This document shows, one piece after another, positions 9,978-46,554 of a stretch of 64,000 nt of DNA. The position numbers were made by a program, and so were the translations under genes. The notes beneath the pieces are model-generated. The model saw only the letters and a list, made by a program, of their open reading frames with translations. It was not told the DNA's origin and searched no databases. The stretch's first letter is position 1. Each line of letters opens with the position of its first letter. This DNA comes from an uncultured Bacteroidales bacterium (GTDB lineage: Bacteria > Bacteroidota > Bacteroidia > Bacteroidales > F082): contig CALBNV010000078.1 in the NCBI GenBank assembly GCA_937896895.1, positions 1,408 through 65,407 on the forward strand, written 5' to 3'.

Positions 9978-10032
9978 GGCTGATGGTTTTGAGATGAAAA
10001 TATTCTGCACCTTGAGTTTTCAGGGTGCATTT

Positions 10033-12649: not shown

Positions 12650-12654
12650 CTGAT

Positions 12655-24582: not shown

Positions 24583-25139
24583 ATACCTTCTACACAAACG
24601 ACCGCGCTGAATGGCGCAAATGGCTCGGCGAGCATTTCGAGACGGAGAAAGAAATCTGGTTCGTCTTTCCCGTGAAGGCGGCGGAAGAGGGGAGCCTTTC
24701 CTACAACGATATGGTGGAGGAAGCACTTTGTTTCGGTTGGATTGACAGTACAATCAAGCACATCGACCCAACCCATCGGGCGCAGCGCATCACGCCGCGC
24801 AATCCGAAAAGCACGTATTCACGTCCCAACATCGAGCGGCTGATCTGGCTTGACGCACACAATTTGATTCATCCGAAAGTCAGGCCTTCGGTGCTGCCTT
24901 TGATTCAGACACCATTCCTTTTTCCGGAGGATATTCTTGCGGAAATCAGGAAAGACGAGGAAACATGGAAAAATTACGGCAACTTTTCGGAGCCTTACCG
25001 GCGCATCCGGGTTGCCTATATTGATGCAGCACGCAAGCGTCCGGAGGAATTTCAGAAACGATTGGAAAATTTTATCCAGAAAACAAAAGAAAACAAAATC
25101 ATACAAGGTTATGGCGGAATCGAAAAATATTACAAGTGA
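24579..25139 (+). CDS. YdeI/OmpD-associated family protein
   Basis: 186 aa with the EWRKWL...EALCFGWIDS...RITPRNPKSTYS pattern. It has an ATGA overlap with the upstream GNAT gene. Confidence 0.7.
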   Translation: MNTFYTNDRAEWRKWLGEHFETEKEIWFVFPVKAAEEGSLSYNDMVEEALCFGWIDSTIKHIDPTHRAQRITPRNPKSTYSRPNIERLIWLDAHNLIHPKVRPSVLPLIQTPFLFPEDILAEIRKDEETWKNYGNFSEPYRRIRVAYIDAARKRPEEFQKRLENFIQKTKENKIIQGYGGIEKYYK

Positions 25140-25143
25140 GAAA

Positions 25144-25767
25144 ATGAAACAAGAGATAAATCCCCAAGAAACAACGCGAGCTCAAGCCTTTAGTTTTTGG
25201 ATGTCGTCGCCCATGCCAATGGTGACTTTGGTGAAGACCATCGACGTCTCTCGATTGGTGAAAGTAAGCAAACGGAAACATCTGTCGTTCAACATGTTGA
25301 TGTGCTGGTGCATCGGCAAGGCGGCGAGTCAAATTGAAGAGTTTTATAAGTTACCAGAAAACGGCAAGTTTTATCAATACGACCAATTGGCCGTCAATGT
25401 GATTGTCAACAATAAAAATGGCGGAATCAACTCATGCGACATAGCCTTCACAAATGATTTGTTGCAATTCAGTAAGGATCATGCTGAATTAACGCGAAAA
25501 ACAACTGACGAATGCAAGAGCTTTTTCCTCGAAGACAAGATGGTTGTGGGCACATCGGCCATGATTGACACCGAACTCGACTGCATTGTAAATCAATATA
25601 CTGAGCAATTCTGCAATCCGATGGTGATGTGGGGGAAATATCGGAAAGGATTATTCAAAACAATGTTGCCGGTGTCATTTCAGTTTCATCATGTTCAAAT
25701 GGATGGCGGTCATGGTGCTCGATTTTTGGAGAATTTACAGGCGGAAATCAGAAAGTTTTTGACATGA
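25144..25767 (+). CDS. chloramphenicol acetyltransferase-like (CAT family) protein
   Basis: 207 aa from ATG 25144, with the CAT-type catalytic motif FQFHHVQMDGGHGARF near the C-terminus. Confidence 0.7.
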   Translation: MKQEINPQETTRAQAFSFWMSSPMPMVTLVKTIDVSRLVKVSKRKHLSFNMLMCWCIGKAASQIEEFYKLPENGKFYQYDQLAVNVIVNNKNGGINSCDIAFTNDLLQFSKDHAELTRKTTDECKSFFLEDKMVVGTSAMIDTELDCIVNQYTEQFCNPMVMWGKYRKGLFKTMLPVSFQFHHVQMDGGHGARFLENLQAEIRKFLT

Positions 25768-25984: not shown

Positions 25985-27403
25985 TTAATAAAACAAATCA
26001 TCAAGTACAACATTGTTGGCTGAAATTTCAGAATACATGTTTGTTTTTGTTCCGTATGTTGTTATAATTGTTATTTGGAATCCCTTGCGTTGCTTGGTTT
26101 CCGACATGAATGTTTCGGCACGGTGTATGATTTTGTTGTATTCATCTTTTTGAAGAGAATATTCGTTTCTGGAGAATTTGATTTCACAGATGCTGATGAT
26201 GCCGTCTGCTCTGTCGATTATCAAGTCTATTTGGGCGGACGGTTCGGTGGATGTGCTGCGCCAGGAATAATATTCGGTGTGGATTCTGTCCAAGTGCATT
26301 GCGGAAAGAATCTGGTCGATGTGGCACATGCAGACTCGTTCGTATGCAAGGCCGTAGAATGTGCTGATTTGCGGCGATCCGATTTTGTTGCTCCAGAAAT
26401 GCTTGTCGGTGCTTGGCTTCTTGCAAAAGGCATTATGGAATACCGTGTAGAAATCAATCATCTGGTAGATGCCGCCATTGTGTTTTGTGCCGTTGTTGTA
26501 CATTCTTATGAAGTCGCAATATTGCAAGTCATCGAGCATGCGTGTTAGGTTGCCGCTTGTGGGTATGTTGAGTTTCTCTGAAATTTCGTTGCGTGTAAGT
26601 CCTTTCTTGTGTTCGCATAGAAGCCTGATTATTTCCATGTAACCGTTGGGATTCTTGTATAAAGAACTGAATAGGCGGCTGTATTCGTCTTTCATTTCAG
26701 CCTCATCGCCGAAAAACAGTCTGTCGATATTGTTTGCCACACTGTCGTTGAAATCGATTTTGCTCAGATAATACGGTATGCCCCCCGTTGTCATAAACAT
26801 CTGAAGCATGTCCATTCTTGTCCAGCATGTCTTGTGGTTTTTCGCGTAGAGTTCTACTTGTTTCAATGTGAAAGGACGCAGGTGGATGCTGTGGGTTATT
26901 CTGTTGTGAAGGCCGCCTTTGTTGTTCACAATGTTTCTGAGCATCCACGATGTCGCCGAGCCGCAGACGACAAACATCATGTTGTCCATCCATGAAGCTT
27001 TTCCGTTCCAGAAATAGTCGAGGGCGTGCGTGAAGCCTGAATGTTGGGTGTCGAAGCAGGGGAGTTCATCGATGAACACGACGATTCTTCCGTTTCGTCT
27101 TTTCTTTTTTGCAAGCAATGATGCAAGGACGTCGAACATGTCAATCCATGTCTTGGGTCTCGCTCCTGAATATCCGTGTGTCCGCAAGGCTGAAAAGAAT
27201 GCACTCATTTCCTCTTCCCGGTTGCCGTCGATGATGCCAGTCGCGTAAAAGTCGAATTTGTCCTCAAAGTATTGTCTTACAAGGAAGGTCTTGCCAACTC
27301 TTCGTCTGCCGAATAAAGCAATGAATTCCGCTTTTCCGCTTGATTTGAAATTGTCGAGCAATTCAAATTCTCGTTCTCGCCCTATTATCTTTTCCATTGT
27401 CAT
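25985..27403 (-). CDS. AAA-type ATP-binding protein (archaeal-ATPase/DUF234-like orphan ATPase)
   Basis: 472 aa with Walker A GRRRVGKT and Walker B VVFIDELP. A winged-helix-like segment sits near residue 270. A TATCTTTG -7 box (complement of 27425-27432) lies 22 nt upstream of the ATG. Confidence 0.75.
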   Translation of the reverse strand: MTMEKIIGREREFELLDNFKSSGKAEFIALFGRRRVGKTFLVRQYFEDKFDFYATGIIDGNREEEMSAFFSALRTHGYSGARPKTWIDMFDVLASLLAKKKRRNGRIVVFIDELPCFDTQHSGFTHALDYFWNGKASWMDNMMFVVCGSATSWMLRNIVNNKGGLHNRITHSIHLRPFTLKQVELYAKNHKTCWTRMDMLQMFMTTGGIPYYLSKIDFNDSVANNIDRLFFGDEAEMKDEYSRLFSSLYKNPNGYMEIIRLLCEHKKGLTRNEISEKLNIPTSGNLTRMLDDLQYCDFIRMYNNGTKHNGGIYQMIDFYTVFHNAFCKKPSTDKHFWSNKIGSPQISTFYGLAYERVCMCHIDQILSAMHLDRIHTEYYSWRSTSTEPSAQIDLIIDRADGIISICEIKFSRNEYSLQKDEYNKIIHRAETFMSETKQRKGFQITIITTYGTKTNMYSEISANNVVLDDLFY

Positions 27404-27503: not shown

Positions 27504-27845
27504 CCGGATTGGATTATGTCATGAATGTAAATTTAATTGAAAAATCCGGTTTGTTTTTGTTTTGTCTTGATAAAAATTCATGTATTTGCCGTGTCATACT
27601 GAAAATATGACAAAACATATATAAAAGCGTTTTGCTTTATTTCTTCTGCTTGAAAATTTGGCGATTTAAAAGTAAATGAAGAAAAATAAGTAAGATGTTC
27701 ATGCTTTGTGCGTGAGCTTTACTTGTTTCTGTATTAACTGGGTCACGCCAAATACCTCAAGCAGCGGAAACGAGTTGAGTTTCACGCTTTTTTTGTGCTT
27801 TGTCGGAAACAAGATGACAAAATACTGAAGCAAAAACTTTGTGAT

Positions 27846-28223
27846 ATGTCAACGTCAAACGAACGTATCATCTTGAACATCGGGAAGAGAATGGTTAAGG
27901 TTGCCGTGCATGAAATCCTGTATGTTGTCTGCGAAGACTACATCTGTTCTTTGACTGTGTCAGACGGTAGGACATATCAGGTTTCACGTTCATTGCAGTC
28001 TGTCCATGAGGAGTTGGACGGTTGTGGATTTCAGTACATCAGCCGAGATGTGCTGGTAAACATGCACCATGTAGTGGAGCTTCAGCGCACATCTGCCAGA
28101 AAATGGTGCGCCAAAATGAGCGACGGAAGCGTGTTTTTCGTTGCTTCGAGGCGGCAGAAAGGCTTCATGGAGGCATTTCTGACTACACGTTCACGAGCGA
28201 ATACGACACGCTCACGTGAGTAA
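27846..28223 (+). CDS. stand-alone LytTR-domain DNA-binding protein (no receiver domain)
   Basis: 125 aa from ATG 27846. The LytTR pattern is VAVHEILYVVCEDYICSLTVSDGRTYQVSRSLQSVHEEL...FQYISRDVLVNMHHV. The track start at 27795 is a GTG. Confidence 0.75.
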   Translation: MSTSNERIILNIGKRMVKVAVHEILYVVCEDYICSLTVSDGRTYQVSRSLQSVHEELDGCGFQYISRDVLVNMHHVVELQRTSARKWCAKMSDGSVFFVASRRQKGFMEAFLTTRSRANTTRSRE

Positions 28224-28606: not shown

Positions 28607-28855
28607 ATGAAAAAAGACAAATTGATTCAAGAGTTTGAAAACTTGAAAATTGAAAATGCCAATAGCTTTGTTGGTGGTAAACATAATGAAAACTTTTGCG
28701 ATCGTGAAATATATGCATGGACCGCTGATCCCAACGGACCAGCAGGAAATGGGCAAATGGATCCAACTGGCAGATACCAACAGGTGTTCGATTTGGACCC
28801 CACAACCAATGATACAATTGTAGGAGACACAATTTCAAACCGTCCCAGGTGGTAA
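28607..28855 (+). CDS. RiPP precursor peptide with double-glycine leader
   Basis: 82 aa. The leader is MKKDKLIQEFENLKIENANSFVGG, with hydrophobic residues at -4, -12 and -15. The 58-aa core is rich in Asp and Thr. The cognate C39-ABC exporter and maturases lie downstream. Confidence 0.75.
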   Translation: MKKDKLIQEFENLKIENANSFVGGKHNENFCDREIYAWTADPNGPAGNGQMDPTGRYQQVFDLDPTTNDTIVGDTISNRPRW

Positions 28856-28918: not shown

Positions 28919-30493
28919 ATGAAAAAAGTAAGCATATTCGTTTATCTGTTTGTAAGTTTTTCTTTCGTTTGGGCGCAGTATCCAAACGATGGTTTGTATT
29001 ACAAAGCAAACATGGCTTATTGGACGCGCGATGATTCGGTAACCTATGCGCTTTATTCCAAGTTAGATTCCATCGAGCCAATTGATAGTTTTTACGACTT
29101 GTGGAACTATTATTTTGCTTCCGAGATGATGGAAGACTCGTTGAAAAGCAAAGAATTGTTGTTCCGTCTGGTCGCAAAAGGTTTGGACAAAGGCGGAGTC
29201 GAGCAGGCTTTTTTACATGACATCGGATTGCATAAGCGTTCCTATTGGACCGAACTGGATTCCGTAATCAGCATCGCGGAGAGCAAAAGATGCCAGCCTT
29301 TCATTGATTCATTAGCGACGATGAGGGAAATTGACCAAGCCGTCAGGCAAAAACCATGGACGGACGAAAACAGAAGAAAAATGAGGGTCATTGATTCAAT
29401 TAACACTGTTAAACTCGAGTTGCTGATAGCACAATATGGTTTCCCGACATGGGAACTTGTCGGCCGCGACGGTGCTGAAAACGCATGGCTTATCGCTCAG
29501 CATTCTGCAACGCTCTTGCCTTGGTATTTGAAACACTACAGACAAGCCGTGCAGGAAAACAATGCTGATATTCACTGTTTAGCACTTATGGAAGACAGAT
29601 TTCTAATGCATCAAGGCCGTCCTCAGATCTATGGTACTCAATTAAGTTTTAGCGATTCTGCGGTTGGATTTCACCCAATAGCCGATGTGAAGCATGTCAA
29701 TGAACGCAGGTTTGCTGTTGGTTGGTGCCCCATTGAGAAGATTGCAAAAAGCCATGTTGGGGTTGATTCGGTTTTGATTTTCGCTGGAGATCTGGATTAT
29801 TCAAATAATTATTATCCAAGTATTGTGAATTTGTATACTTCCCAACCAACTGATGAAAACGTTACGAGGAATTTTGTAATTGAGAAAACCACGATGTATT
29901 GTTTCCCATGCGATTTGGAAGCGTTTTCCTGTCATTTGTTTGAGATTGAGAAAGACACTGCAAGGGCGGTAATCCAAGCCAAAAAGATTGTACTATGTGG
30001 AAGGCGCATTGATGAGGAATGGAATTTACCCCAATTGTTGATGGATTCGGTAAGAGCAAATTACACCGAACTTCGTGCCGATTATGAAAGGATGATAACC
30101 AGGGATGACGACATGATGCTTAATGCGATAACTTTTTTCGACACGCTTGTCAAGGTTTTGGAAAGTGGTTCTTATCCTCGTTACACCATCGATGCGTGGA
30201 ATGGAAACATCAAAAAACTTATTTCAACCAAGTCAAAAACATTGACAAAGAATGACTACGGTGCCTTTTTCGAATGGCTGTACAATCAAGTCGCTGTCGG
30301 TAACTATCATCTTTTCGACTACGCGGAATTGTATGATGAAGTGTATCATCGCCTATATGGGAAATCGTATTACGGGCAGAAACGTTTCGAGAAAAAAGTA
30401 CGGATATATAAACCGAAGAATGTTGATGAGCGCCGCGCTGGAATAATGCTTCCGAGTTTGGAAATGTGGGAAAGAACAATGGAAATGTTGTGA
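28919..30493 (+). CDS. secreted hypothetical protein (524 aa) embedded in the RiPP cluster; central region DUF6624-like (tentative)
   Basis: Signal peptide MKKVSIFVYLFVSFSFVWAQ from ATG 28919. The track start at 28871 is a TTG inside the hairpin. The segment IDQAVRQ...QYGFPTWELVGRDGAENAWLIAQHS...YGTQ resembles a Bacteroidota DUF family, from memory. Confidence 0.6.
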   Translation: MKKVSIFVYLFVSFSFVWAQYPNDGLYYKANMAYWTRDDSVTYALYSKLDSIEPIDSFYDLWNYYFASEMMEDSLKSKELLFRLVAKGLDKGGVEQAFLHDIGLHKRSYWTELDSVISIAESKRCQPFIDSLATMREIDQAVRQKPWTDENRRKMRVIDSINTVKLELLIAQYGFPTWELVGRDGAENAWLIAQHSATLLPWYLKHYRQAVQENNADIHCLALMEDRFLMHQGRPQIYGTQLSFSDSAVGFHPIADVKHVNERRFAVGWCPIEKIAKSHVGVDSVLIFAGDLDYSNNYYPSIVNLYTSQPTDENVTRNFVIEKTTMYCFPCDLEAFSCHLFEIEKDTARAVIQAKKIVLCGRRIDEEWNLPQLLMDSVRANYTELRADYERMITRDDDMMLNAITFFDTLVKVLESGSYPRYTIDAWNGNIKKLISTKSKTLTKNDYGAFFEWLYNQVAVGNYHLFDYAELYDEVYHRLYGKSYYGQKRFEKKVRIYKPKNVDERRAGIMLPSLEMWERTMEML

Positions 30494-30527
30494 AAAATGA
30501 TGGATGTTAATTTGATGCGTTAAAGAT

Positions 30528-31475
30528 ATGGTAGTAGTGTTTTCCATAAATGAAGATAATTCTACAGAAGATGTGGTTGATTGGTTTGACCATTATGGAG
30601 AGAACTTTTATCGCATAAATAATATAGATGATATAAATTCTTTTATAGAAAAACATCAAATGTTATTGATTCCTGAAACGGAAAATGCAGTGACTTCGGT
30701 ATGGTATCGAAAATCTCCCTCAAAGTCTTTGACAACAAATGTCTTCAACAATCCAAATACTGACAGAAGTGTTAGATTGTTTGCTTATTCTGAGCAAAAT
30801 GGCTTGTTTGAATCACTGTTCTCTTTGCTTGGAGAGAAGAAATGGCTAAACCATTGGTCGAATAGTTCTCCTGCAAAATTCCATCAATTGTTACTGGCAT
30901 CAAAATGTGGATTGAATGTCCCTGCTACGTATGTTACGAATTCCAAAGAACAATTATTGGATTTCATGTCACACCATGCCAGCATGATTGTTAAGCCTAT
31001 ACAAGATGTCGAATCCATTGAATTAGATGGGAAACGTTATTTTCAATACACAAAGGTACTTCACCGGGAAGATATTAACAGATTAAATAATACATTTTTT
31101 CCTGGCTTATTCCAAAAGGAAATTAAAAAGAATCTGGAAATCAGATCTTTCTATTTGGATGGCAAATTATATAGTATGGCGATATGCTCTTCATTTGACA
31201 GGCAAACTCAAATGGATTTTCGCCGATATAATGACAAATATCCCAATAGGACTATTCCATACCAATTACCAAAAGAAATCGAAAAGAAGTTGAACATCTT
31301 TATGGAGGAAATGAACTTAAACTGTGGCTCCATAGACTTGATATTGGATGATTCTGGAGATTACTATTTTTTGGAAGTAAACCCAGTTGGTCAATTCGGA
31401 ATGGTATCCTATCCATGCAATTATTATTTGGAAAGAAAAATAGCAAACTTTTTAATTCAATCAAATAATGAATAA
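30528..31475 (+). CDS. ATP-grasp peptide maturase (grasp-with-spasm/microviridin-type ligase family)
   Basis: 315 aa. The N-terminus MVVVFSINEDNSTEDVVDWF is typical of RiPP ATP-grasp ligases. ATP-grasp motifs are NLEIRSFYLDGK, DFRRYN and YYFLEVNPVGQFG. Confidence 0.8.
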   Translation: MVVVFSINEDNSTEDVVDWFDHYGENFYRINNIDDINSFIEKHQMLLIPETENAVTSVWYRKSPSKSLTTNVFNNPNTDRSVRLFAYSEQNGLFESLFSLLGEKKWLNHWSNSSPAKFHQLLLASKCGLNVPATYVTNSKEQLLDFMSHHASMIVKPIQDVESIELDGKRYFQYTKVLHREDINRLNNTFFPGLFQKEIKKNLEIRSFYLDGKLYSMAICSSFDRQTQMDFRRYNDKYPNRTIPYQLPKEIEKKLNIFMEEMNLNCGSIDLILDDSGDYYFLEVNPVGQFGMVSYPCNYYLERKIANFLIQSNNE

Positions 31476-31609
31476 ATCGTTTAAGGAAATTGTATATAAA
31501 AACAGGCTGCCCATCACTCTTTTGTTTATGGAAAATGTTGTTACAGAGAACACAAAACCATATATTTCCATAACCATTGATTATAAGAATGGTAAAAAAA
31601 TGATCGCTC

Positions 31610-32770
31610 ATGATTTTTACAAGCATATATCAACGTATTAAAGAAAACAAGCCGTTGTATTTCCGCTTTTGGGCGAATTGCATCTTGGTAAAGGGCTACA
31701 AGAACGGCATCCTGTTTGATTTGCAAAGAGGACGAAGCGTGAATGTCTCGCGTCTCTTTTGCGAAACATACGAACGCTATAAAGGCGAATGCATCAGTTC
31801 TGTTTTTAAAGATGAAAACTTTGATGAAAGGAAAGGCTATGTTAAAATGCTCGATTTCTTTATCAAAAACGACTTCGGAATCCTGACAGATGACGTAAAT
31901 ACACTTCCTGATTTGTCAATGGAATATGACTCCCCTTTCTGGGCCACCAACGTCATCTTGGAGACAGACAGCGATGCCGACCCAGGTTTTATGCTTGATG
32001 TCATTGAAAAACTATCTCAAGGGCATGTCCAAGCCGTACAGATTAACGACTGCGGCCATATTACAGTTCAACAACTTAGAAGGATAGGGGAAATCACAAT
32101 CAACAGCCAACTTCATTACATCAACATATACACAAATTACAGAACAGCATATTCCCAAAAACAATTGAATTTCATATATAGGAACAACCGTTTTCGTAAC
32201 ATTATTTTTATGGGAGCTCCGAGAGAACGAGATTTCAACAATGAAGAAATGGGGTTGGCTAATATCGCTTACATGAAGAAGGTGATAGATTTTAAATGTT
32301 GTGGAAATGTCAGAAAAGATCTGTTTGTTTTCAATCAACCATTTTTCATCGAAGCTCACTCCTGCAACACATGTCTGAACCGCAAAATAAGTATTGATAA
32401 AAACGGGGTGATAAAAAATTGTACATTAATGGAGAATGGATTCGGCAATATACAGGACTATTCGGTCAGAGAGATTGTAGATTTGCCTGGTTTTCAAAAT
32501 TTGTGGAATCTTTCGAAAGACGAAATTGATGTTTGCAAAGATTGTGAATACAGATATATTTGCACTGATTGCCGCCATTTCATCAAAGACAAAGAAAACA
32601 TCAAGTCCCAACCATCAAAATGCAAATACAACCCATACATCGGTAAGTGGGAGGGGGAAAATGGCTATGTTTCTGTAGAAGAATGTGGTAAATATTTACA
32701 AAACACAGGGTATATTCCTAATGAAGATATAATATGTGAATTAAATAAAAGAATCGAAAATACTCAATGA
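31610..32770 (+). CDS. SPASM-domain peptide maturase lacking the radical-SAM CxxxCxxC motif
   Basis: 386 aa. The C-terminal Cys pattern is CNTCLNRKISIDKNGVIKNC ... CKDCEYRYICTDC ... C, which is SPASM-like. There is no CxxxCxxC anywhere in the protein. The stop overlaps the ABC gene start (ATGA). Confidence 0.75.
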   Translation: MIFTSIYQRIKENKPLYFRFWANCILVKGYKNGILFDLQRGRSVNVSRLFCETYERYKGECISSVFKDENFDERKGYVKMLDFFIKNDFGILTDDVNTLPDLSMEYDSPFWATNVILETDSDADPGFMLDVIEKLSQGHVQAVQINDCGHITVQQLRRIGEITINSQLHYINIYTNYRTAYSQKQLNFIYRNNRFRNIIFMGAPRERDFNNEEMGLANIAYMKKVIDFKCCGNVRKDLFVFNQPFFIEAHSCNTCLNRKISIDKNGVIKNCTLMENGFGNIQDYSVREIVDLPGFQNLWNLSKDEIDVCKDCEYRYICTDCRHFIKDKENIKSQPSKCKYNPYIGKWEGENGYVSVEECGKYLQNTGYIPNEDIICELNKRIENTQ

Positions 32771-34953
32771 GTTTCCCTTTTCCTTTCTTCCCTCAACTCG
32801 ACGCCATGGACTGCGGGCCGGCTTGCCTCCGCATGATAGCGAAATATTATGGCCGTCATTATACCCTCGAAGGGCTGAGGCAACGCTGCCACATCAGCCG
32901 CGAGGGGGTGAGCCTGCTCGGGATAAGCAGCGCCGCCGAGGAGATAGGGTTCAAGACCATTGGCGTACACCTGCCGTTCAGCCAGCTAAAAGACGAAGTG
33001 CCGCTGCCGTGCATCGTCCATTGGCGACAAAACCATTTCGTGGTGGTGTATAAGATAAAGCGCGGAACGGTGTATGTGGCAGACCCCGCATCAGGGCTGC
33101 TGAAATATTCCGAAAAGGAATTTTTAGACGGATGGATAAGCCGGCACGACAACGGCAACGAAGGCATAGCACTGCTGCTCGAGCCGCAACCCGACTTCTA
33201 CGCCGAAGAAGGCGAGAAACCCGACAAGGCAAAGTTCTCGTTCATACTCAAATACCTGAAACCTTACAGGAAACTCATCGCGCAGCTGTTCATGGGAATG
33301 ATAATGGGCACGCTGCTGCAGCTCATATTCCCGTTCTTCACCCAGAGCATCGTTGACTATGGCATCGGCAACAGCAACCTGAGTTTCGTCACGCTGATAC
33401 TCGTGGCGCAGCTCACCCTATACGTCGCACAGACCGCCGTGGAGTTCATCCGCTCGTGGATATTGCTGCACATAAGCACGCGTATAAACATCAGCATCAT
33501 ATCCGACTTCCTGATAAAACTGATGAAACTGCCGATAGGCTTCTTCGACACCAAGATGATAGGCGACCTCATGCAGCGCATCGGCGACCACCAGCGCATC
33601 GAGTCATTCCTCACCTCATCGACACTCAACACGCTGTTCTCGTTCGTCACGTTCATCGTGTTCGCAGTGATACTCGCTTTTTACAGCATAAAACTGCTTG
33701 TCGTGTTCCTGATCGGCAGCACACTCTATGTCATCTGGGTCTTGATATTCCTGAAATATCGCCGCGAACTCGACTACAAGCGTTTCTCACAGGCGTCGGC
33801 GGAACAGAGCAATCTCATACAGATGATAACAGGAATGCAGGAGATTAAGCTCAACAACTGCGAGAAACAGAAACGCTGGGAATGGGAGAACATCCAGGCC
33901 AAACTCTTCAAGGTGAGCGTCAGTAGCCTGAAACTCAGCCAGTGGCAGCAGAGCGGCGCGGTGTTCATCAACGAGACGAAGAACATCTTGATTTCTTATA
34001 TCTCCGCAAGGGCGGTGATACAGGGCGACATGAGCCTCGGCATGATGATGGCAGTGCAGACCATCGTCGGACAGCTCAACTCGCCGATAAGCCAGATGAT
34101 CGGTTTCATACAGAGCGCACAGGATGCAAAGATAAGCCTCGAACGTCTCGGCGAGATACACAACAAGAAAGACGAGACGGAAGATGGCGACGGCCGCACC
34201 TCGATATTCACCGACGACAGAGGCATCGGCATTGAGAGCCTCACTTTCCATTACGACCCATTGTCGGACGCGGTGCTCAACGACGTGAACCTCACCACTC
34301 CTGAAGGGAAGGTGACAGCCATCGTGGGCATGAGCGGAAGCGGCAAGACGACGTTGGTGAAGCTGCTGCTCGGCTTCTACCCGCCGACAGGCGGAAGCAT
34401 CCGCGTCGGCGGAATAAACATGAAGAACATCGACCCGAAGGCATGGCGCGACCGCTGCGGAACGGTTATGCAGGAAGGCTTCATCTTCTCCGACAGCATC
34501 GCAAAGAACATAGCTATCGGCGAAGACCACATCGACGAGCGACGGCTGCTCCACGCCGCGAAAGTGGCGAACATACAAGACATGATAGAGAGCCTGCCTC
34601 TCGGCTACAATACAAAAATCGGGCAGGAAGGCAACGGCATCTCGCAAGGCCAGAAACAGCGCATACTGATCGCCCGCGCAGTCTATAAAAACCCCGATTA
34701 TATCTTCCTCGACGAGGCGACTAACTCGCTCGACGCGAACAACGAGCGCGTCATCATGGACAACCTGCAGGAGTTTTTCAAGGGGAAGACGGTCGTTGTT
34801 GTGGCGCACCGACTGAGCACCGTCAAGAACGCCGACCAGATTGTCGTCATCAACCACGGAAAAATCACCGAGACGGGCACTCACGAGGAACTGACCGCAC
34901 GACGCGGCGAATACTACACTCTGGTTAAGAATCAACTTGAACTTGGAAAATGA
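32767..34953 (+). CDS. peptidase C39 domain-containing ABC transporter (bacteriocin/RiPP processing-export ATPase/permease)
   Basis: 728 aa. The N-terminal C39 domain has a catalytic Cys (QLDAMDCGPACL), His (NHFVVVY) and ADPASG. A 6-TM domain follows. Walker A is GMSGSGKTT, the signature is ISQGQKQR and Walker B is IFLDEATNSLD. Confidence 0.9.
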   Translation: MSFPFPFFPQLDAMDCGPACLRMIAKYYGRHYTLEGLRQRCHISREGVSLLGISSAAEEIGFKTIGVHLPFSQLKDEVPLPCIVHWRQNHFVVVYKIKRGTVYVADPASGLLKYSEKEFLDGWISRHDNGNEGIALLLEPQPDFYAEEGEKPDKAKFSFILKYLKPYRKLIAQLFMGMIMGTLLQLIFPFFTQSIVDYGIGNSNLSFVTLILVAQLTLYVAQTAVEFIRSWILLHISTRINISIISDFLIKLMKLPIGFFDTKMIGDLMQRIGDHQRIESFLTSSTLNTLFSFVTFIVFAVILAFYSIKLLVVFLIGSTLYVIWVLIFLKYRRELDYKRFSQASAEQSNLIQMITGMQEIKLNNCEKQKRWEWENIQAKLFKVSVSSLKLSQWQQSGAVFINETKNILISYISARAVIQGDMSLGMMMAVQTIVGQLNSPISQMIGFIQSAQDAKISLERLGEIHNKKDETEDGDGRTSIFTDDRGIGIESLTFHYDPLSDAVLNDVNLTTPEGKVTAIVGMSGSGKTTLVKLLLGFYPPTGGSIRVGGINMKNIDPKAWRDRCGTVMQEGFIFSDSIAKNIAIGEDHIDERRLLHAAKVANIQDMIESLPLGYNTKIGQEGNGISQGQKQRILIARAVYKNPDYIFLDEATNSLDANNERVIMDNLQEFFKGKTVVVVAHRLSTVKNADQIVVINHGKITETGTHEELTARRGEYYTLVKNQLELGK

Positions 34954-36275
34954 GCGACGAAATAATTGATAACAAAAGCGAAAGCTCCGAGCAGCACCTC
35001 AAAGGTCTCAACATCCACAGCGAGCAGGTCCAGGACATCATGGGGCGTCCTCCGGGATGGTTGGTGAGGTGCGGAATTTCAATCATTTTGCTGGTGATTG
35101 TGCTGTTGCTCGTTGGCAGCGCGTTCGTCAAATATCCTGAAGTGCTGACGGCGGCGATAAAAATCAACGCCTACAACCTGCCGGCGCAGGTGAAGGCACG
35201 CAGCACCGGGCGCATCGACACTCTGTTTGTCAGGGAAGGCGACACAGTTAATGCAGGTGCTCCGCTGGCTCTGATTGAGAATCCTGCAAAATATGAAGAT
35301 GTCATTTTCCTGAAAGAAAACATGGCTTCAGTGGCGCACGACTCGGCGTGGCATTGTGACAGACCGCTCCAGCTCGGCGAGGTGCAGAACAGTTATCTGT
35401 CGTATGTCCAGGCGGTTAATGCCTTGACGTTCTTTGTCGGGAACGACTATCTCGGCGAGATGATAGCGTCGAAGAGAAAACAGATTGACGTCATGTCGAA
35501 GACGCTGAATAACTACAAACGGCAGTCGAGGATTGGGGCAGAGCAACTGTCGGTGGCGAAAGAGAAATTCGCCGTTGACTCCACATTGTTCAAAAAAGGA
35601 GTGATATCAAAAGTCAATTTCAGCGAGAGCAGGAATGTTTTTCTCCAGCAGCGTATGGCATATCAGTCGATGCTCATCGAGACTGACAACATGAGGCTGA
35701 GTCTGCTGCAAGCCGAACAGTCGGTGACGGAGCTGGAACAGAGCCGCAGTGAGCAACACAACGACCTTTCACTACAGCTTGAAATAGCGAGAGGACAGCT
35801 TGAGGCAAGCATCAGGCAATGGGAACAAAGCTGTCTTCTCGTGAGTCCGGCAAGAGGGACTATTGCGCTGACGATGTTCTGGCAACGGAACCAGAACATC
35901 ACCGCAGGTGAGACGATGCTCGCCGTGGTGCCCGTTGAAAGGTCATCATATTTCGGCAAGATTTATCTTTCTCAACAGGGAGCCGGCAAGGTTAAAACAG
36001 GGCAGAACGTGAATATCAAACTTGATGATTATCCGTATATGGAGTTCGGTTTCGTGCAGGTCGGGCTGTCGAAGATGTCGCTGATGCCATACGAGGACGC
36101 CTCCGCCGGCAATATATACGTCATGGAGGTTGAACTTCCCGACAGCCTTGTCACACAATATGGAAAGTTCATCCCGTATCGTCCGGAGATGTCAGGCACA
36201 GCGGAAATCATCACGGAAGACATGTCGGTCCTTGTGAGATTGATAAACCCGATTCGGGCGGTGCTGAGGAGGTGA
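34950..36275 (+). CDS. HlyD family secretion adaptor protein
   Basis: 441 aa with an N-terminal TM (GISIILLVIVLLLVGSAF), a long coiled coil and a C-terminal beta domain. It has an ATGA overlap with the ABC gene. Confidence 0.85.
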   Translation: MSDEIIDNKSESSEQHLKGLNIHSEQVQDIMGRPPGWLVRCGISIILLVIVLLLVGSAFVKYPEVLTAAIKINAYNLPAQVKARSTGRIDTLFVREGDTVNAGAPLALIENPAKYEDVIFLKENMASVAHDSAWHCDRPLQLGEVQNSYLSYVQAVNALTFFVGNDYLGEMIASKRKQIDVMSKTLNNYKRQSRIGAEQLSVAKEKFAVDSTLFKKGVISKVNFSESRNVFLQQRMAYQSMLIETDNMRLSLLQAEQSVTELEQSRSEQHNDLSLQLEIARGQLEASIRQWEQSCLLVSPARGTIALTMFWQRNQNITAGETMLAVVPVERSSYFGKIYLSQQGAGKVKTGQNVNIKLDDYPYMEFGFVQVGLSKMSLMPYEDASAGNIYVMEVELPDSLVTQYGKFIPYRPEMSGTAEIITEDMSVLVRLINPIRAVLRR

Positions 36276-36523: not shown

Positions 36524-37174
36524 ATGGAAACAAAACTTTTTGATGACGAGAAATACATTGATAACTCGTTGGATTACAACTTAGTAAGTGATATTTTGGA
36601 TTTTTTGGCGTACATGATGACCCCGCAGTCGAAAAGTTCTATCGCAAGTAACATCAGGTACATAAACTATTCATATAAGAAGGTCGTAGTTGACAAGCAT
36701 GTCGATTATTGTATTGAGAACAATCTCCTCATATCGAAAAGGAAAATTTACAACGGCAGGGACGAGACAAATGTCTTTTTTTTGCCCGTGTCAGCGCAGC
36801 TTGACAGGCTTTATGACATTTCCAAAGATGCCCAAAGGCTGAAAAAAGTCAGCAGATACAAGAACTTGCAATATTTTTCGATTTATGGCTTGTCCGACCT
36901 TCGTGATGCGATTTTCAGTTATTTCAACGGCAAAATTACGTATTTGTACAGACTTGCTGAAAACCCCCAATGTGATGAGTATGTCAAGGCGATGTTTTAT
37001 GATGAGAGGTATTTCGGTTTTTTAAGCAGGCTTGCCCATAAGCAGACACGATGCGACAATCTTTTGCTTCTTACCGACCATGAATATGATGATATAGACG
37101 AAGACGGCGTTCAAATTCAAATAAGGCCGGTGTATGAATGGAGTGCGGAGTTTTTCAGTGAAAAGCCACATTGA
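36524..37174 (+). CDS. hypothetical protein
   Basis: 216-aa ORF with its own -7 box. No TM or signal peptide, and no recognisable family. Confidence 0.55.
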   Translation: METKLFDDEKYIDNSLDYNLVSDILDFLAYMMTPQSKSSIASNIRYINYSYKKVVVDKHVDYCIENNLLISKRKIYNGRDETNVFFLPVSAQLDRLYDISKDAQRLKKVSRYKNLQYFSIYGLSDLRDAIFSYFNGKITYLYRLAENPQCDEYVKAMFYDERYFGFLSRLAHKQTRCDNLLLLTDHEYDDIDEDGVQIQIRPVYEWSAEFFSEKPH

Positions 37175-37402: not shown

Positions 37403-38707
37403 ATGAGACATGTCCTTTCTTTATGGTTTGTCTTGCTAACTTGCAGTGTGTTTTCGCAAAATAGCAACGTGTTGAATGTCAGTGTAATGGTGGCTGATTC
37501 AACTGGAAAGGCAATAAAAGACGTAGCCATATACAACTCAAAACAAAAAGTCATTGGTATTACCGACAGTTACGGAACTGCCACAATATCTGTAAATTAT
37601 GGTGATTTTGTGGCATTTTCGCATATCAGTTTCGAAACGTTAAGGGTAAGCGTTTCCGACAAGAGCAACATGCTCATCATCATGAATGAAAAGAAGAACA
37701 TGTTACCTGAAGTTGAAATTGTTGAAAACACGCCTCATCTGGCATATAACAACAAGGACGTTTGGATTGTCGATTACACCGTCGGCGAAGAAGGAATCTT
37801 TGCCATTACCACCACTGGAAGAAATTCGCATCTGTTACATCTCGGATTTGAACAAGACACGTTGTCAAAAAAGGAAATAAGCACCAAATACGAGCACATC
37901 ACACGAGATGTCTTCGGGAACATCCATCTGATTGGTCCTGACTCAACTTATCAAGTGTATTCCGACAGACAAACAATGCATCTTTTGTACGGTGCGACTT
38001 TGGGGAAATACAATGAAACCTTCGCGCCGATTGCCACACTGACAGACAGCATTCTCGTGACAAAGAAATCGTTTTACGACGGACAGGAGATTGCGTTTTT
38101 TAAAGTAAATCTTAACAATAAGAAAAGCGTGTTTCTTTGCGATGTTTATAGCGAGGCCAAAGAAATGGCGAAAAATTGGAACAGAGACAATGTAAGACTA
38201 CAACGTATTCTGAATTCCGACTTGGAACTCTTTTACAGCCCGATTGAACGACCAGAACACCGAGCGGAAATCAAGGAGAACATGCTTAAACGCCTTATGT
38301 TAAAAGAAATTTACGCACCAGTATTTAACATTGAAAATCACGTCTTTATCTTTGATTTTAACAAAAACGCCATCTATAAATATAACAAAGTCGGGGATTA
38401 TGAAGACAGAATTGAAATTGTATTTCATAGAGGTTTTCGTAACAGCATCGAAAAAAAATGGTGCAACAACATCATTTTCGACACATCGAGGCAGGAATGC
38501 TATGCACAGTTTTTGGAAGACGGTATTGTGACATTAAAAAAAATTGACCTAAAAAATGGCAATGTGATTGGTACCTATATACTTGATGCTCACGTTTTTC
38601 CGACAAACATTCAAGTTTATGATGGCGTTGTTTATTATCAATTCATTGATGTCCGTCAAACTTACGGACAAGATTGCAGAAGTTTATACAAAATGACTTT
38701 AAAATGA
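37403..38707 (+). CDS. secreted hypothetical protein with N-terminal carboxypeptidase-regulatory-like domain
   Basis: 434 aa with signal peptide MRHVLSLWFVLLTCSVFSQ. The CarboxypepD_reg-like segment is NVSVMVADSTGKAIKDVAIYNSKQKVIGITDSYGTATI. The remainder is unknown. Confidence 0.6.
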   Translation: MRHVLSLWFVLLTCSVFSQNSNVLNVSVMVADSTGKAIKDVAIYNSKQKVIGITDSYGTATISVNYGDFVAFSHISFETLRVSVSDKSNMLIIMNEKKNMLPEVEIVENTPHLAYNNKDVWIVDYTVGEEGIFAITTTGRNSHLLHLGFEQDTLSKKEISTKYEHITRDVFGNIHLIGPDSTYQVYSDRQTMHLLYGATLGKYNETFAPIATLTDSILVTKKSFYDGQEIAFFKVNLNNKKSVFLCDVYSEAKEMAKNWNRDNVRLQRILNSDLELFYSPIERPEHRAEIKENMLKRLMLKEIYAPVFNIENHVFIFDFNKNAIYKYNKVGDYEDRIEIVFHRGFRNSIEKKWCNNIIFDTSRQECYAQFLEDGIVTLKKIDLKNGNVIGTYILDAHVFPTNIQVYDGVVYYQFIDVRQTYGQDCRSLYKMTLK

Positions 38708-38869: not shown

Positions 38870-40723
38870 ATGAAAAGACACTTACTTGCAATCATTGCCA
38901 TCATGATGATGGCATTCAACGCAAAAGCCCAGACAAGCGGACAATGCGGCGATAACCTTACGTGGAATTTTGACTCGTCAACAGGAACACTGACAATTAG
39001 TGGGACAGGTGACATGTGGGATGGTGTCTGTCCGTGGTGGGACTATTACCACCAGGTGACAGATTTAGTAATTGGCAACTCGGTAACATCAACAGGTGCC
39101 GGAGCGTTCGCAAATCATCCAAATTTGACAAACGTTACTTTGGGTAATTCTTTGATCAGTATTGGCGAATGTTCTTTTATGGGTTGCACAAAAATGCTAT
39201 CAGTTGAAATTCCAAATTCAGTGTTGTCAATTGGTGACGAGGCGTTTTGTGCATGTTATCAGTTGTGCGATGTAACTATCGGAAATTCAGTTACTTATAT
39301 AGGCGAATCGGCGTTTGAAAGCAGTGGTATCACTTCGATTGTTATTCCTGATTCTGTAGTTACTTTGGGTGGTAGTGTTTTTCACCAATGTAGAGATTTG
39401 GAATCGGTTGTTATCGGGGATTCTGTGATTGCCATACCGGAAAATGCTTTCGGAATGTGTTACAAGTTAAAATCTGTAACAATTGGAAACTCTGTTGTGT
39501 CTATTGGTGGTTATGCTTTCCTTTGGTGCATGGAATTGGAGAACGTGACACTGGGCAACTCTTTGGAAGCTATTGGTGAAATGGCTTTTAGTGAGTGTAT
39601 CAATCTGAAAAACATCGAATTTCCAAATTCATTGAAAACGATAGGTCAAGAGGCGTTTGATGGTGTTGAATTAGAAAGTCTTACATTTGGAAATTCGTTG
39701 GTTTACATAGGAAGACAAGCGTTTTATAACAATTCCCAACTACAATCATTGACGTTTCAGAACTCGCCGTGTACTATAGCAAAAAGTGCTTTTTCATCTT
39801 GTTATGCATTGCAATCTGTCGAATTTGGGAATGCAATAGAAAGCATCGACACGTTGGCATTTTCAGGTTGCCCTATCAGATTGTTGGAGCTGCCGAACTC
39901 GTTGGTACATTTGGGCGACAGGGCATTCAGCGGTAACGATGAGTTGAGAAAAGTCACAATTCCAGCATCTCTTACATCACTTGAAGGCAATGTTTTCACT
40001 TTTTGCCATTATCTTGAGGAAATCATTGTCGATGCAAACAATCCGAAATACGACAGTCGTGATAATTGCAACGCAATAATTGAAACCGAAACGAATACGT
40101 TGATAACGGGTTGCAGAGCCACGTCTTTACCATATTCCGTAGAGGTTATTGGTCGGGAGGCTTTCGCCGGAGCGGGGATGCTCACGTCAATAGATATTGT
40201 CGGACAAGTCAACACTATTGGAGAATATGCCTTCCGTGATTGTACATATTTATCGGATGTCATAATAGGAGATCATGTTGAAACTATTGGCAGTCGAGCG
40301 TTTTATTCAGACTACAATATCAGAGAGATCAGTTGCCATGCGGTGATTCCGCCTGTTTGCGCTGACGATGTTTTTGAACAGGAAGTCGAAGTGTTGGCGA
40401 ATCTTTATGTCCCGAATGGCTGCAAGGAAGCGTATGAAACCTCGCCCAAGTGGATGAATTTCCTGAATATCATCGAACGCGCTGTCGATGTCAATGAAAC
40501 ATCTTTATCCGCTGTTTCCATCAGTCCAAATCCCGCTTCGGATTTCATCAACATTACCTGTGAAAACATGAAATCAATCGAAATCTTGTCGTTGGAAGGA
40601 AAAATCATCAAGAATACGATGGTTTCAGGCAACATAACACAGATTGACATCAGCGATTTAAACAGTGGGGTTTATATTTGCAGAATCGATGGTGACAAAA
40701 TTTGGAAAATCATTAAGAAATAG
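38870..40723 (+). CDS. leucine-rich repeat (BspA-like) surface protein with T9SS C-terminal sorting domain
   Basis: 617 aa with a signal peptide. It has many repeats of about 23 aa (IGNSVTSIGxxAFxxCxxL) and a C-terminal ISPNPASDFINI...GVYICRIDGDKIWKIIKK. Confidence 0.85.
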   Translation: MKRHLLAIIAIMMMAFNAKAQTSGQCGDNLTWNFDSSTGTLTISGTGDMWDGVCPWWDYYHQVTDLVIGNSVTSTGAGAFANHPNLTNVTLGNSLISIGECSFMGCTKMLSVEIPNSVLSIGDEAFCACYQLCDVTIGNSVTYIGESAFESSGITSIVIPDSVVTLGGSVFHQCRDLESVVIGDSVIAIPENAFGMCYKLKSVTIGNSVVSIGGYAFLWCMELENVTLGNSLEAIGEMAFSECINLKNIEFPNSLKTIGQEAFDGVELESLTFGNSLVYIGRQAFYNNSQLQSLTFQNSPCTIAKSAFSSCYALQSVEFGNAIESIDTLAFSGCPIRLLELPNSLVHLGDRAFSGNDELRKVTIPASLTSLEGNVFTFCHYLEEIIVDANNPKYDSRDNCNAIIETETNTLITGCRATSLPYSVEVIGREAFAGAGMLTSIDIVGQVNTIGEYAFRDCTYLSDVIIGDHVETIGSRAFYSDYNIREISCHAVIPPVCADDVFEQEVEVLANLYVPNGCKEAYETSPKWMNFLNIIERAVDVNETSLSAVSISPNPASDFINITCENMKSIEILSLEGKIIKNTMVSGNITQIDISDLNSGVYICRIDGDKIWKIIKK

Positions 40724-46459: not shown

Positions 46460-46554
46460 TTTGTATAATTGTTGAAAAAAATTCAAGTTGCAAAATTAGT
46501 AAAAAATTCAAAAAAAATTGTACTTTTGCAGCCGTATTAATAAAGGTATAAAAG

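Follow-up and report, generated by a model that had tools for sequence, protein, structure and literature searches.

The gwsS Gene and Its Neighborhood

The gene gwsS occupies positions 31610..32770 on the + strand of the window (the whole 64-kb stretch of DNA that was analyzed) and encodes a 386-aa protein that belongs to the SPASM-domain peptide maturases of grasp-with-spasm systems (NCBIfam TIGR04193). All other features described below are likewise on the + strand. The precursor peptide (82 aa; 28607..28855) has a double-glycine (GG) leader, MKKDKLIQEFENLKIENANSFVGG, followed by a Thr/Asp-rich core. It is encoded by the sole small open reading frame (ORF) with a GG leader near the cluster, and gene calls in other assemblies likewise give an 82-aa product. 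Alignment with related precursors revealed a conserved leader and a variable core in which T39, D64-P65, and D74-T75 are invariant; no conserved Cys was detected in the cores. The adjacent gene (28919..30493) encodes a 524-aa DUF6624 protein (PF20329, E = 5.8e-27) that starts with MKKVSIFVYLFVSFSFVWAQ and has an N-terminal signal peptide. A DUF6624 gene is found at the same position in close relatives and was identified in 16 of 80 related loci.

The ATP-grasp graspetide ligase is encoded by gwsG (30528..31475; TIGR04192, 293.4 bits versus a cutoff of 230), with the DFR motif at residue 230. Homologs of gwsG were present in 74 of the 80 related loci, and in the 63 loci in which gwsG and gwsS share a strand and are no more than 400 bp apart, gwsG was directly upstream. 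Between them lies an ORF for a 57-aa ‘LPL-family’ small protein (31468..31641) with the motifs LPITLLF and DFYKHIS. The first 8 nt of this ORF are shared with the 3′ end of gwsG and its last 32 nt with the 5′ end of gwsS. Downstream, a C39 peptidase-domain ABC exporter (32767..34953; Peptidase_C39, 5e-37; ABC_membrane; ABC_tran), the start of which overlaps the gwsS stop, is followed by its HlyD-family periplasmic adaptor (34950..36275; TIGR01843, 6e-32; HlyD_3). As judged from its domains, the exporter would cleave the precursor after GG and export the peptide. The order precursor, (DUF6624), gwsG, LPL, gwsS, and exporter is conserved from Bacteroidota to Acidobacteriota. A 216-aa downstream protein and an upstream LytTR protein were not homologous to the genes at the same positions in another locus (L084).

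GwsS Is a Full-Length Member of a Conserved Family

GwsS scored 263.4 bits against TIGR04193 (cutoff 175, E = 3.7e-78), with residues 17-348 aligned to positions 1-333 of the 342 positions of the profile. With this score above the cutoff, an adjacent TIGR04192 gene, and a seven-Cys SPASM array that lacks CxxxCxxC, GwsS is a full-length member of this curated, known family. Because profile position 1 aligns at residue 17, the N-terminus of GwsS is complete. We identified 301 homologs (E ≤ 1e-5), and the family comprised 2,198 clusters (50% identity, E ≤ 1e-30). A broken gwsS remnant was observed in one related locus (L001).

GwsS contains 16 Cys (residues 24, 51, 61, 148, 230, 231, 252, 255, 271, 309, 312, 318, 321, 338, 359, and 376). 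The initial annotation had described a SPASM-like Cys array in the 386-aa translation, and re-translation of 31610..32770 reproduced the spacings exactly: C252-x2-C255; C255-x10-G266-x4-C271; C309-x2-C312-x5-C318-x2-C321; and C338. This is the SPASM motif Cx9-15Gx4C ... Cx2Cx5Cx3C ... C, with Cx2C in place of the last, canonical Cx3C. The Cx2C variant was detected in 119 of 120 homologs and in a true radical-SAM/SPASM family taken from a related locus. The SPASM domain (residues 248-340; 32351..32629) contains seven invariant Cys. Its assignment is borderline by generic domain models and far beyond chance at the family level: TIGR04085 gave 27.6 bits for the isolated C-terminal fragment and 24.1 bits for whole GwsS (cutoff 27), PF13186 gave 20.5 bits (cutoff 21.5), and 26 of 42 GwsS relatives matched PF13186 at E ≤ 1 (best 1.7e-8).

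The seven SPASM Cys (255, 271, 309, 312, 318, 321, and 338) were retained in all 252 full-length members, and an eighth universal Cys, C231 (codon 32300..32302), was retained in 251 of 252. The next best conserved were C24 (89%) and C359 (52%); within the clade of GwsS itself, C24, C231, and C359 are all well conserved in addition to the seven SPASM Cys. Mean pairwise identity was 0.67 in the SPASM region versus 0.20-0.27 in the N-terminal domains. Invariant residues other than Cys were E248, N253, K259, D311, E313, R315, D320, R322, and Y340-N-P-Y343. The SPASM domain is followed by a clade-specific C-terminal extension (residues 341-386; 32630..32767; YNPYI.KW..E.GY..VEECG...), which was missing from 105 of the 252 members, and C359 was present in 132.

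The Radical-SAM Site Is Absent Family-Wide

The initial annotation held that no CxxxCxxC is present, and none was detected in GwsS or in nearby frames. A relaxed three-Cys pattern (C-x2-24-C-x1-5-C) was likewise absent from residues 1-240. A six-frame scan of positions 30400-33000 yielded no usable CxxxCxxC, the sole match being an out-of-frame open stretch of 38 aa inside gwsG. The 57-aa ORF just upstream of gwsS, in another frame, contains no Cys. An alternative upstream start that would add the motif is excluded by stop codons that close the in-frame sequence 5′ of gwsS. The same 386-aa protein is encoded on at least six contigs, including those from samples SRR6425800, SRR21151004, and ERZ27247130. 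Since independent assemblies encode an identical protein, the lack of CxxxCxxC is not a sequencing error.

Screening of relatives extended this result. No CxxxCxxC was detected upstream of the SPASM motif in any of the 252 full-length relatives or in any of 77 genome-encoded orthologs, and none of 42 members matched Pfam Radical_SAM (PF04055), even at E ≤ 1. When the GwsS family was aligned with a true radical-SAM/SPASM maturase family by hhalign, only the SPASM region aligned (E = 0.016), with the SPASM Cys of the two families paired. The missing radical-SAM site is therefore the normal state of the TIGR04193/gwsS family and not a peculiarity of the present locus, and the earlier statement that the protein cannot initiate radical chemistry in the classical way applies to the family as a whole.

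The eight invariant Cys would allow GwsS to bind two auxiliary [4Fe-4S] clusters. Because exactly eight Cys are universal, two such clusters would be fully served and no Cys triad would be left over. Cys231 is a candidate for the fourth ligand of auxiliary cluster I, a role that we assume by analogy with anSME.

Domain Architecture and Predicted Structure

The AF2 model of the N-terminal half of GwsS had a mean pLDDT of 87.9. Within it, residues 17-93 (31658..31888; pLDDT 89-95) form an RRE-like (PqqD-like) peptide-recognition domain, with four β-strands followed by three helices. The predicted strands 24-28, 32-37, and 42-47 and helices 48-57, 62-67, and 74-86 correspond to the winged-helix fold of the RRE (a three-stranded sheet and three helices), and residues 17-20 form an extra strand. 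Foldseek matched this region to lasso B1 (6jx3_B, prob 0.99), the PbtF RRE (8t19, prob 0.95, TMt 0.67, rmsd 3.0), and TbiB1 (5v1v, prob 0.93). Pfam PqqD (PF05402) was not matched by any of 42 GwsS members at E ≤ 1, and scans of the N-terminal half with Pfam and NCBIfam at permissive E-values revealed neither PqqD nor Radical_SAM. A role in peptide recognition, one of those put forward in the initial annotation, gains support from this predicted fold, and the N-terminal domain is most likely a peptide-binding domain of the RRE type.

Residues 112-222 (31943..32275) are predicted to form a shortened β/α domain of about four β/α units and two strands, with pLDDT of 91-97 over most of its length. 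A radical-SAM core would be about twice as long. A structural comparison of the kind proposed in the initial annotation placed CteB and SuiB, both RRE/radical-SAM/SPASM maturases, at the top of the PDB matches: in Foldseek searches with the N-terminal half, CteB (5why/5wgg) ranked first (prob 0.96-0.97, ~215 columns) along with SuiB, followed by generic TIM barrels. The E-values for CteB and SuiB were marginal (~1e-3) and the TM-scores low. In the full-length model, pTM was 0.38 and the SPASM region had pLDDT of 40-60. Sequence comparisons did not link the β/α domain to radical-SAM families, either with Pfam (42 members, E ≤ 1) or with hhalign. Searches of PDB sequences with phmmer gave no match to GwsS at E ≤ 10, and the family profile matched a designed TIM barrel alone (7uek, ‘OT3’), which fits a β/α repeat and is silent on ancestry. 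We read residues 112-222, from their modeled fold, as a putative decayed radical-SAM core from which the cluster loop is gone.

The initial annotation had pointed to NVILETDSDADPGFMLDV as the place where the missing motif would normally sit. In the AF2 model, which has a strand at 112-119 and a helix at 125-137, these residues (114-131; 31949..32002) run from the first strand of the β/α domain through a short loop into its first helix; none of them is Cys. P0261 is a genuine radical-SAM/SPASM maturase whose N-terminal domain is comparable, and its CxxxCxxC starts at residue 114. The topology thus fits the proposed place, while hhalign gave no residue-level alignment there; since the profile-profile alignment covered the SPASM region only, the placement rests on topology.

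A Small LPL Protein Is Encoded between gwsG and gwsS

Of the 63 loci examined, 61 have a small ORF between gwsG and gwsS, and most of the encoded proteins combine a P-h-h-x-h motif at the N-terminus with a FYKPIS-type motif at the C-terminus. Gene calls on independent contigs include the LPL ORF of the present locus. Natural LPL::GwsS fusions were also identified. One (P0216) was recovered on six contigs, including some from two different samples, and its locus has no separate small gene; the other (P0224) was recovered on one contig. The initial annotation had suggested that the protein may be a partner of the ATP-grasp ligase, a suggestion that is supported by the presence of gwsG in nearly all related loci, by the small adaptor-like protein between the two genes, and by these fusions.

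The name of the LPL family comes from Makarova et al. (2022; PMC8939145), who compared LPL with PqqD and saw a resemblance between its motif and the Phh[x1-2]h motif of leaders. In the locus studied here, the P-h-h-x-h motif is missing from precursor leaders and is carried by LPL, a split that the same authors remarked upon (PMC8939145). LPL is unlikely to be the RRE, given that an RRE-like domain is already part of GwsS.

Proposed Role of GwsS and Alternatives

On balance, we consider it somewhat probable that GwsS is a radical-SAM-derived protein that has lost SAM cleavage and now serves as a non-radical, Fe-S, peptide-binding partner of the graspetide ligase. The graspetide synthetase would have three parts, with GwsS as its non-radical partner subunit, and we infer that GwsS acts as a scaffold or recognition subunit rather than as a redox catalyst. 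In the proposed mechanism, LPL would be anchored to GwsS via its invariant C-terminal FYK(P/H)IS motif and its N-terminal P-h-h-x-h motif would serve GwsG as a leader in trans; the binding partners given here to the two LPL motifs are conjectural. GwsS would help to recruit and position hypervariable precursors that bear a GG export leader only, GwsG would form side-chain ester or amide rings, and the C39-ABC/HlyD exporter would cut after GG and secrete the product. The invariant residues other than Cys count against a partner role. They exceed the needs of cluster binding and so point to a possible active site in the SPASM half.

This conservation would favor the alternative that GwsS is a true enzyme, in which the two SPASM clusters carry out SAM-independent peptide chemistry before or after ring closure by GwsG (e.g., oxidation, desaturation, or cross-linking via a residue bound to a cluster). 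Conservation of the SPASM domain is very strong and includes many invariant polar residues around the Cys, and the RRE would deliver a substrate; moreover, the curated name of TIGR04193 includes ‘maturase’, and Makarova et al. expect further modifications in such loci (PMC8939145). To our knowledge, no catalytic SPASM domain that lacks a radical-SAM cluster has been described, which counts against such an enzyme. Profile scans of the operon revealed no redox partner. In the hypervariable precursor cores, invariance is limited to Thr and Asp positions, and neither a Cys nor an aromatic residue is conserved as a target; the presence of all eight Cys suggests fully ligated clusters of the electron-transfer type rather than an open site. 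A sactionine-like, thioether-forming role on precursor Cys was disfavored, since Cys is not conserved in related cores. Overall, we regard a true enzyme as unlikely, with an appreciable chance of being correct. It is rather doubtful that the SPASM clusters perform chemistry, independently of SAM, on the LPL protein or on the peptide once its rings are closed. If they do, GwsS would be the first catalytic ‘SPASM-only’ maturase, and its conserved non-Cys residues would mark the active site.

A further alternative is that GwsS is a ‘pseudo-rSAM’ subunit that provides its RRE and auxiliary clusters in trans to a radical-SAM protein encoded elsewhere. NCBIfam includes a ‘pseudo-rSAM protein’ family (TIGR04150) that is weakly similar to GwsS in the SPASM region (E = 0.0014), and ORFs with a radical-SAM motif were identified in 9 of the 80 related loci. 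However, GwsS scored 17.7 bits against TIGR04150, for which the cutoff is 250, and the match was confined to the SPASM region. No ORF with the motif was detected within ~6 kb in 71 of the 80 loci, and among ORFs of ≥ 150 aa in the window, none had a plausible CxxxCxxC, the one match being a spurious overlapping ORF. A nearby radical-SAM gene acting in trans was rejected on these grounds. The invariable neighbor of gwsS is an ATP-grasp gene, not a radical-SAM gene, and we judge a subunit of this type to be highly improbable.

Still less credible is a non-canonical radical-SAM enzyme with a SAM-cleaving cluster on dispersed Cys, as in Dph2, or on one of the SPASM clusters. The conservation of C24, C231, and C359 within the GwsS clade would favor it. 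A third, Dph2-like cluster on these three residues was nevertheless rejected because 48% of members lack C359 and 11% lack C24, with no co-variation, and the eight universal Cys correspond to two clusters; the half-length β/α core and the lack of a Radical_SAM HMM signal also argue against it. Finally, despite the remnant in L001, there is next to no chance that gwsS is a decaying relic or an assembly artefact without function, given an intact frame that is identical in independent samples, 2,198 family clusters with invariant motifs and strict gene order, and start and stop codons that overlap neighboring genes, an arrangement often seen with translational coupling.

Proteins of the GwsS type are found throughout one branch of the graspetide gene clusters; they form ~2,200 sequence clusters, which are mostly from Bacteroidota, and their hosts include gut and oral species. 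In the literature, they are often called radical-SAM enzymes (PMC8939145), and in a preprint on a P. gingivalis ICE they are called ‘ligases’; to go by their sequences, they cannot be classical radical-SAM enzymes. No experiment on GwsS function was reported in the literature searched, and a literature search on ‘pseudo-rSAM’ returned no match. The function of GwsS bears on whether a SPASM domain is ever functional alone and on how ATP-grasp ligases handle hypervariable precursors, and the LPL protein and its natural fusion to GwsS provide a concrete handle on the role of GwsS.

Comparison with Known Systems

The system closest to the present locus is that of TIGR04193/GwsS itself, with which the protein shares the TIGR04192 partner, the seven-Cys motif, the lack of CxxxCxxC, the small upstream ORF, and the C39-ABC/HlyD exporter. 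Within this family, the present clade adds the C-terminal extension of ~45 aa and a DUF6624 gene between precursor and gwsG (16/80 loci). The grasp-with-spasm system was reportedly defined by Haft and Basu in 2011. It corresponds to branch 5 of the graspetides in Makarova et al. (2022; PMC8939145) and to group 14 of Carter et al. (2026; PMC13097080).

The sactisynthase CteB (5wgg/5why) and the streptide Lys-Trp cyclase SuiB (5v1q) consist of RRE, radical-SAM, and SPASM domains, and the domains of GwsS follow in the same order. The SPASM domains of CteB and SuiB each hold two auxiliary clusters. In contrast to both enzymes, GwsS lacks the CxxxCxxC loop and a Radical_SAM HMM signal, has a β/α core of about half the length, has Cx2C rather than Cx3C as its last SPASM spacing, and is partnered with an ATP-grasp ligase. 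The TIGR04150 ‘pseudo-rSAM protein’ of the GG-Bacteroidales system resembles GwsS as a curated SPASM protein named as having no working radical-SAM site. By its score, GwsS is not a member of TIGR04150. Proteins of that family are presumably paired with a genuine radical-SAM maturase; the partner of GwsS is an ATP-grasp ligase.

Peptide chaperone logic is known from PqqD/PqqE and from the microviridin ligases MdnB/MdnC, in which the leader activates in trans; unlike GwsS, PqqE is a working radical-SAM enzyme. MirC, the obligatory partner of the graspetide ligase MirB (rosaritide), is strictly co-occurring and non-catalytic; MirB depends on it for stability and activity, and the two proteins co-purify (Carter et al., 2026; PMC13097080). 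MirC differs from GwsS in its SurA-like chaperone domain, its lack of an Fe-S motif, and its unrelated sequence. MirC resembles GwsS in that its N-terminal domain is weakly RRE-like, and its function is the one that our model would assign to GwsS.

Absence of the Radical-SAM Motif in GwsS

The gwsS gene (31610-32770, +) encodes a 386-residue SPASM protein with 16 Cys. The SPASM-like array described in the initial annotation proved exact, comprising C252-x2-C255, C255-x10-G266-x4-C271, and C309-x2-C312-x5-C318-x2-C321, followed by C338. The claimed absence of CxxxCxxC was also borne out: the motif occurs nowhere in the protein, and no relaxed three-Cys pattern was detected within its first 240 residues. 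Across all six frames of positions 30400-33000, a single CxxxCxxC was recovered, out of frame, in a 38-aa open stretch inside the upstream gene. An alternative upstream start and a sequencing error, the two routes by which a motif might have been overlooked, can both be ruled out, since stop codons lie in-frame upstream of gwsS, position 1 of the TIGR04193 profile aligns at residue 17, the small ORF next upstream, which is read in a different frame, encodes no Cys, and at least six contigs (among them ones from samples SRR6425800, SRR21151004, and ERZ27247130) encode exactly this 386-aa protein.

Family Membership and Distribution of Cysteines

GwsS matched NCBIfam TIGR04193 (“grasp-with-spasm system SPASM domain peptide maturase”) with 263.4 bits against a cutoff of 175, and the gene at 30528-31475 matched TIGR04192, the corresponding ATP-grasp maturase, with 293.4 bits against 230. 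Relatives of GwsS carry the same family name at NCBI and JGI, and the nearest protein cluster in the homologue search was at most 91% identical to it. GwsS is an ordinary member of an established and curated family, for which a profile search over 1.84 billion representatives returned 2,198 clusters (50% identity) at E ≤ 1e-30 and 4,209 at E ≤ 1e-3; genome matches were for the most part from Bacteroidota, with several from Acidobacteriota. The missing motif is the norm across TIGR04193 and is implicit in the curated name, which does not use the words “radical SAM”. Haft and Basu, who defined the system in 2011, reportedly already remarked on the absence of the motif. GwsS is weakly similar, in the SPASM region, to a separate family named “pseudo-rSAM protein” (NCBIfam TIGR04150). 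Published descriptions of GwsS disagree with one another; in Makarova et al. (2022; PMC8939145) it is classed among radical-SAM enzymes. These loci are the Bacteroidetes “branch 5” of that study and also the “group 14” of Carter et al. (2026; PMC13097080). The gene symbols gwsG and gwsS are in use in a 2026 preprint; no functional characterisation of GwsS was found in the literature searched.

An N-terminal CxxxCxxC was absent from all 120 first-round homologues (two of which have a chance CIDVCKDC within the SPASM region), from all 77 full-length orthologues from genome loci, and from all 252 full-length members, distant cluster representatives included. No sequence of a 42-member alignment matched Pfam Radical_SAM, even at E ≤ 1. 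The seven SPASM Cys were conserved in 252/252 members, C231 in 251, C24 in 224, and C359, located in a C-terminal extension missing from 105 members, in 132. Two fully ligated [4Fe-4S] clusters need eight Cys, as in anSME, and the eight universal Cys match this need and are predicted to bind two such clusters. At the level of sequence, this census decides the absence of a SAM-cluster site across TIGR04193, and the missing site is a trait of the entire family. The inference that GwsS cannot initiate radical chemistry in the classical way thus stands: with the motif absent family-wide and no spare triad, it cannot bind the classical SAM-cleaving cluster.

Domain Anatomy of GwsS

AlphaFold2 models were generated for full-length GwsS (mean pLDDT 75, pTM 0.38, SPASM region ill-defined) and for residues 1-245 with a 106-sequence alignment (mean pLDDT 87.9). 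They predict an RRE-like winged-helix domain at residues 17-93 (strands, then three helices) and a domain of about four β/α units plus two strands at residues 112-222, where strand 112-119 is followed by a five-residue loop and helix 125-137; the SPASM domain comprises residues 248-340. Foldseek searches of the PDB, in which E-values were marginal and TM-scores low, ranked SuiB 5v1q (E = 1.9e-4, 417 columns) and CteB 5wgg (prob 0.99) highest for the full model. The N-terminal model retrieved CteB 5why/5wgg (prob 0.96-0.97, ~215 columns), then the RREs lasso B1 6jx3_B (prob 0.99), PbtF 8t19 (0.95, TMt 0.67), and TbiB1 5v1v (0.93), and after these SuiB and generic TIM barrels. This ranking suggests that the domain order of GwsS is that of RRE / radical-SAM / SPASM peptide maturases. 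The 18-residue stretch NVILETDSDADPGFMLDV (residues 114-131), proposed initially as the place where the motif would normally sit, is modeled as first strand, loop, and helix, the cluster-loop site in such enzymes.

The models make a decayed radical-SAM core a well-grounded reading of the β/α domain. Because of the marginal E-values and low TM-scores, and because sequence profiles gave no link to radical-SAM families beyond the SPASM domain, homology is suggested rather than demonstrated. Profile-profile comparison with a true radical-SAM/SPASM family paired the six Cys of the motif core one to one, and the Cx2Cx5Cx2C variant is common to both. Conservation is uneven, with mean pairwise identities of 0.27 (RRE-like domain), 0.20 (β/α domain), 0.67 (SPASM domain), and 0.62 (C-terminal extension).

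Operon, Precursor, and Flanking Genes

The operon comprises genes for an 82-aa precursor (28607-28855; leader MKKDKLIQEFENLKIENANSFVGG), a DUF6624 protein with a signal peptide (28919-30493, +), GwsG (30528-31475; DFR motif present), a 57-aa small protein (31468-31641, +), GwsS, a C39-ABC exporter (32767-34953), and an HlyD adaptor (34950-36275), an order shared by close relatives. Among 80 genome loci, gwsG was present at 74; in the 63 loci with both genes on the same strand and within 400 bp, it lay directly upstream of gwsS. Related precursors have a conserved leader and a variable core, with T39, D64-P65, and D74-T75 invariant and no conserved Cys; the invariant Thr and Asp would suit ester or amide rings. 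The DUF6624 gene, between the precursor gene and gwsG, recurs in 16 of the 80 related loci; Carter et al. (2026; PMC13097080) point to DUF6624 as a biosynthetic enzyme class that may await discovery, though in graspetide groups that do not include the SPASM-associated one.

Within 30528-36275, GC3 is 0.33-0.41 in gwsG, the small gene, and gwsS versus 0.74 in the C39-ABC gene and 0.65 in the HlyD gene, and the gwsS stop overlaps the ABC start despite this abrupt shift. The jump inside the operon suggests separate origins for the maturase cassette and the exporter. High GC probably explains a long antisense ORF at 33787-34935. In a Bacteroidales MAG from horse faeces (locus L001), a gwsS fragment consisting of the gene's 3' portion and the initial ~100 nt of the ABC gene (5922-6950; 75.7% nucleotide identity to window positions 31843-32871), with no full-length reading frame and no adjoining gwsG, precedes a cassette with two radical-SAM-motif ORFs (7873-12724) and a second copy of the ABC 5'-end (12734-12828). 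This arrangement looks like the footprint of cassette exchange before the same exporter.

A LytTR DNA-binding protein is encoded just upstream of the precursor (27795-28223, +), and a distant gws locus (L087, 7861-9359) encodes a histidine kinase and a LytTR response regulator; these genes may point to quorum-type regulation of the kind known for many bacteriocins. A run of small resistance- or modification-type genes, 3 kb upstream of the cluster (24028-25767, +), encodes a GNAT acetyltransferase, a protein with an OmdA/YdeI ‘bacteriocin-protection’ domain (24579-25139, +), and a protein resembling chloramphenicol acetyltransferase (25093-25767, +). Directly downstream of HlyD are genes for proteins of 216 aa (36524-37174, +) and 434 aa (37403-38707, +), neither with a Pfam match; the former is not homologous to the 211-aa protein in the same position at locus L084, and the latter has a hydrophobic, signal-peptide-like N-terminus. 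Type IX secretion C-terminal sorting domains on a BspA-type leucine-rich-repeat protein (38870-40723, +) and an S8 subtilase (46555-48201, +) are consistent with a Bacteroidota origin. Two AAA-ATPase genes on the opposite strand flank the region (25985-27403, -, ATPase_2/AAA_14; 41572-42855, -, AAA_14/DUF4143). Since trmD lies at 45767-46486 (-) and a scan of 20 flanking ORFs (17.7-28.2 kb, 37.4-50.9 kb) found no transfer genes, the cluster may be chromosomal, unlike its counterpart on an ICE in P. gingivalis.

The LPL Protein and Its Fusions to GwsS

A small ORF occupies the ~100-250 bp gap between gwsG and gwsS in 61 of 63 loci where these genes are adjacent. Most such ORFs encode an N-terminal (L/F)P(L/I/V)x(Y/F) and a strongly conserved C-terminal FYKPIS(K/R); the window protein reads ...NRLPITLLF...DFYKHISTY, and the C-terminal FYK(P/H)IS motif is kept across phyla. 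The 57-aa ORF belongs to the “LPL family” of Makarova et al. (PMC8939145), who proposed a PqqD-like chaperone and likened the LPL motif to the Phh[x1-2]h ligase-binding leader motif that branch-5 precursors are missing. To that account we add the RRE-like domain of GwsS itself, whose presence means that LPL is probably not the RRE, and natural LPL::GwsS fusions, of which we found no mention in the literature searched.

LPL is fused to the GwsS N-terminus in two of the 150 best family representatives, from at least two lineages. P0216 (452 aa; locus L087, 4001-5359) reads ...LPLSFRY...SFHKPIGR, then a linker and GwsS; it was found on six contigs, two different samples among them, and its locus runs precursor, GwsG, fusion, C39-ABC and lacks a stand-alone small gene. 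P0224 (436 aa; locus L089, 554-1864), found on one contig, carries an Acidobacteriota-type LPL. Fusion of two genes is a classical sign that their products work together in one complex, and these fusions point to a physical LPL-GwsS complex.

Proposed Role of GwsS

We slightly favor a composite model in which GwsS is a non-radical partner subunit acting with LPL and GwsG. GwsS would carry two structural or electron-transfer clusters and anchor LPL through the invariant C-terminal motif of LPL, whose P-h-h-x-h motif would act in trans as a leader for GwsG. GwsS may also assist in recruiting and positioning hypervariable precursors, whose own leaders would serve export.

The main rival, SAM-independent catalysis by the highly conserved SPASM domain itself, draws on a pattern of invariant polar residues; however, the precursors have no conserved target residue and the operon encodes no redox partner, and we hold it to be a distinctly weaker possibility. 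A radical-SAM partner acting in trans is improbable: no ORF with a plausible radical-SAM motif was detected in the 64-kb window, and such ORFs occur in just 9 of the 80 related loci. Even less probable is a non-canonical SAM site in GwsS, since no conserved Cys triad remains for a SAM-binding cluster, making a Dph2-style dispersed site unlikely. That gwsS is a relic is barely credible.

The partner-subunit model has a precedent in the graspetide ligase MirB, which depends on its co-occurring partner MirC for both activity and solubility (Carter et al., 2026; PMC13097080). The N-domain of MirC is weakly RRE-like, and GwsS likewise has a predicted RRE-like domain.
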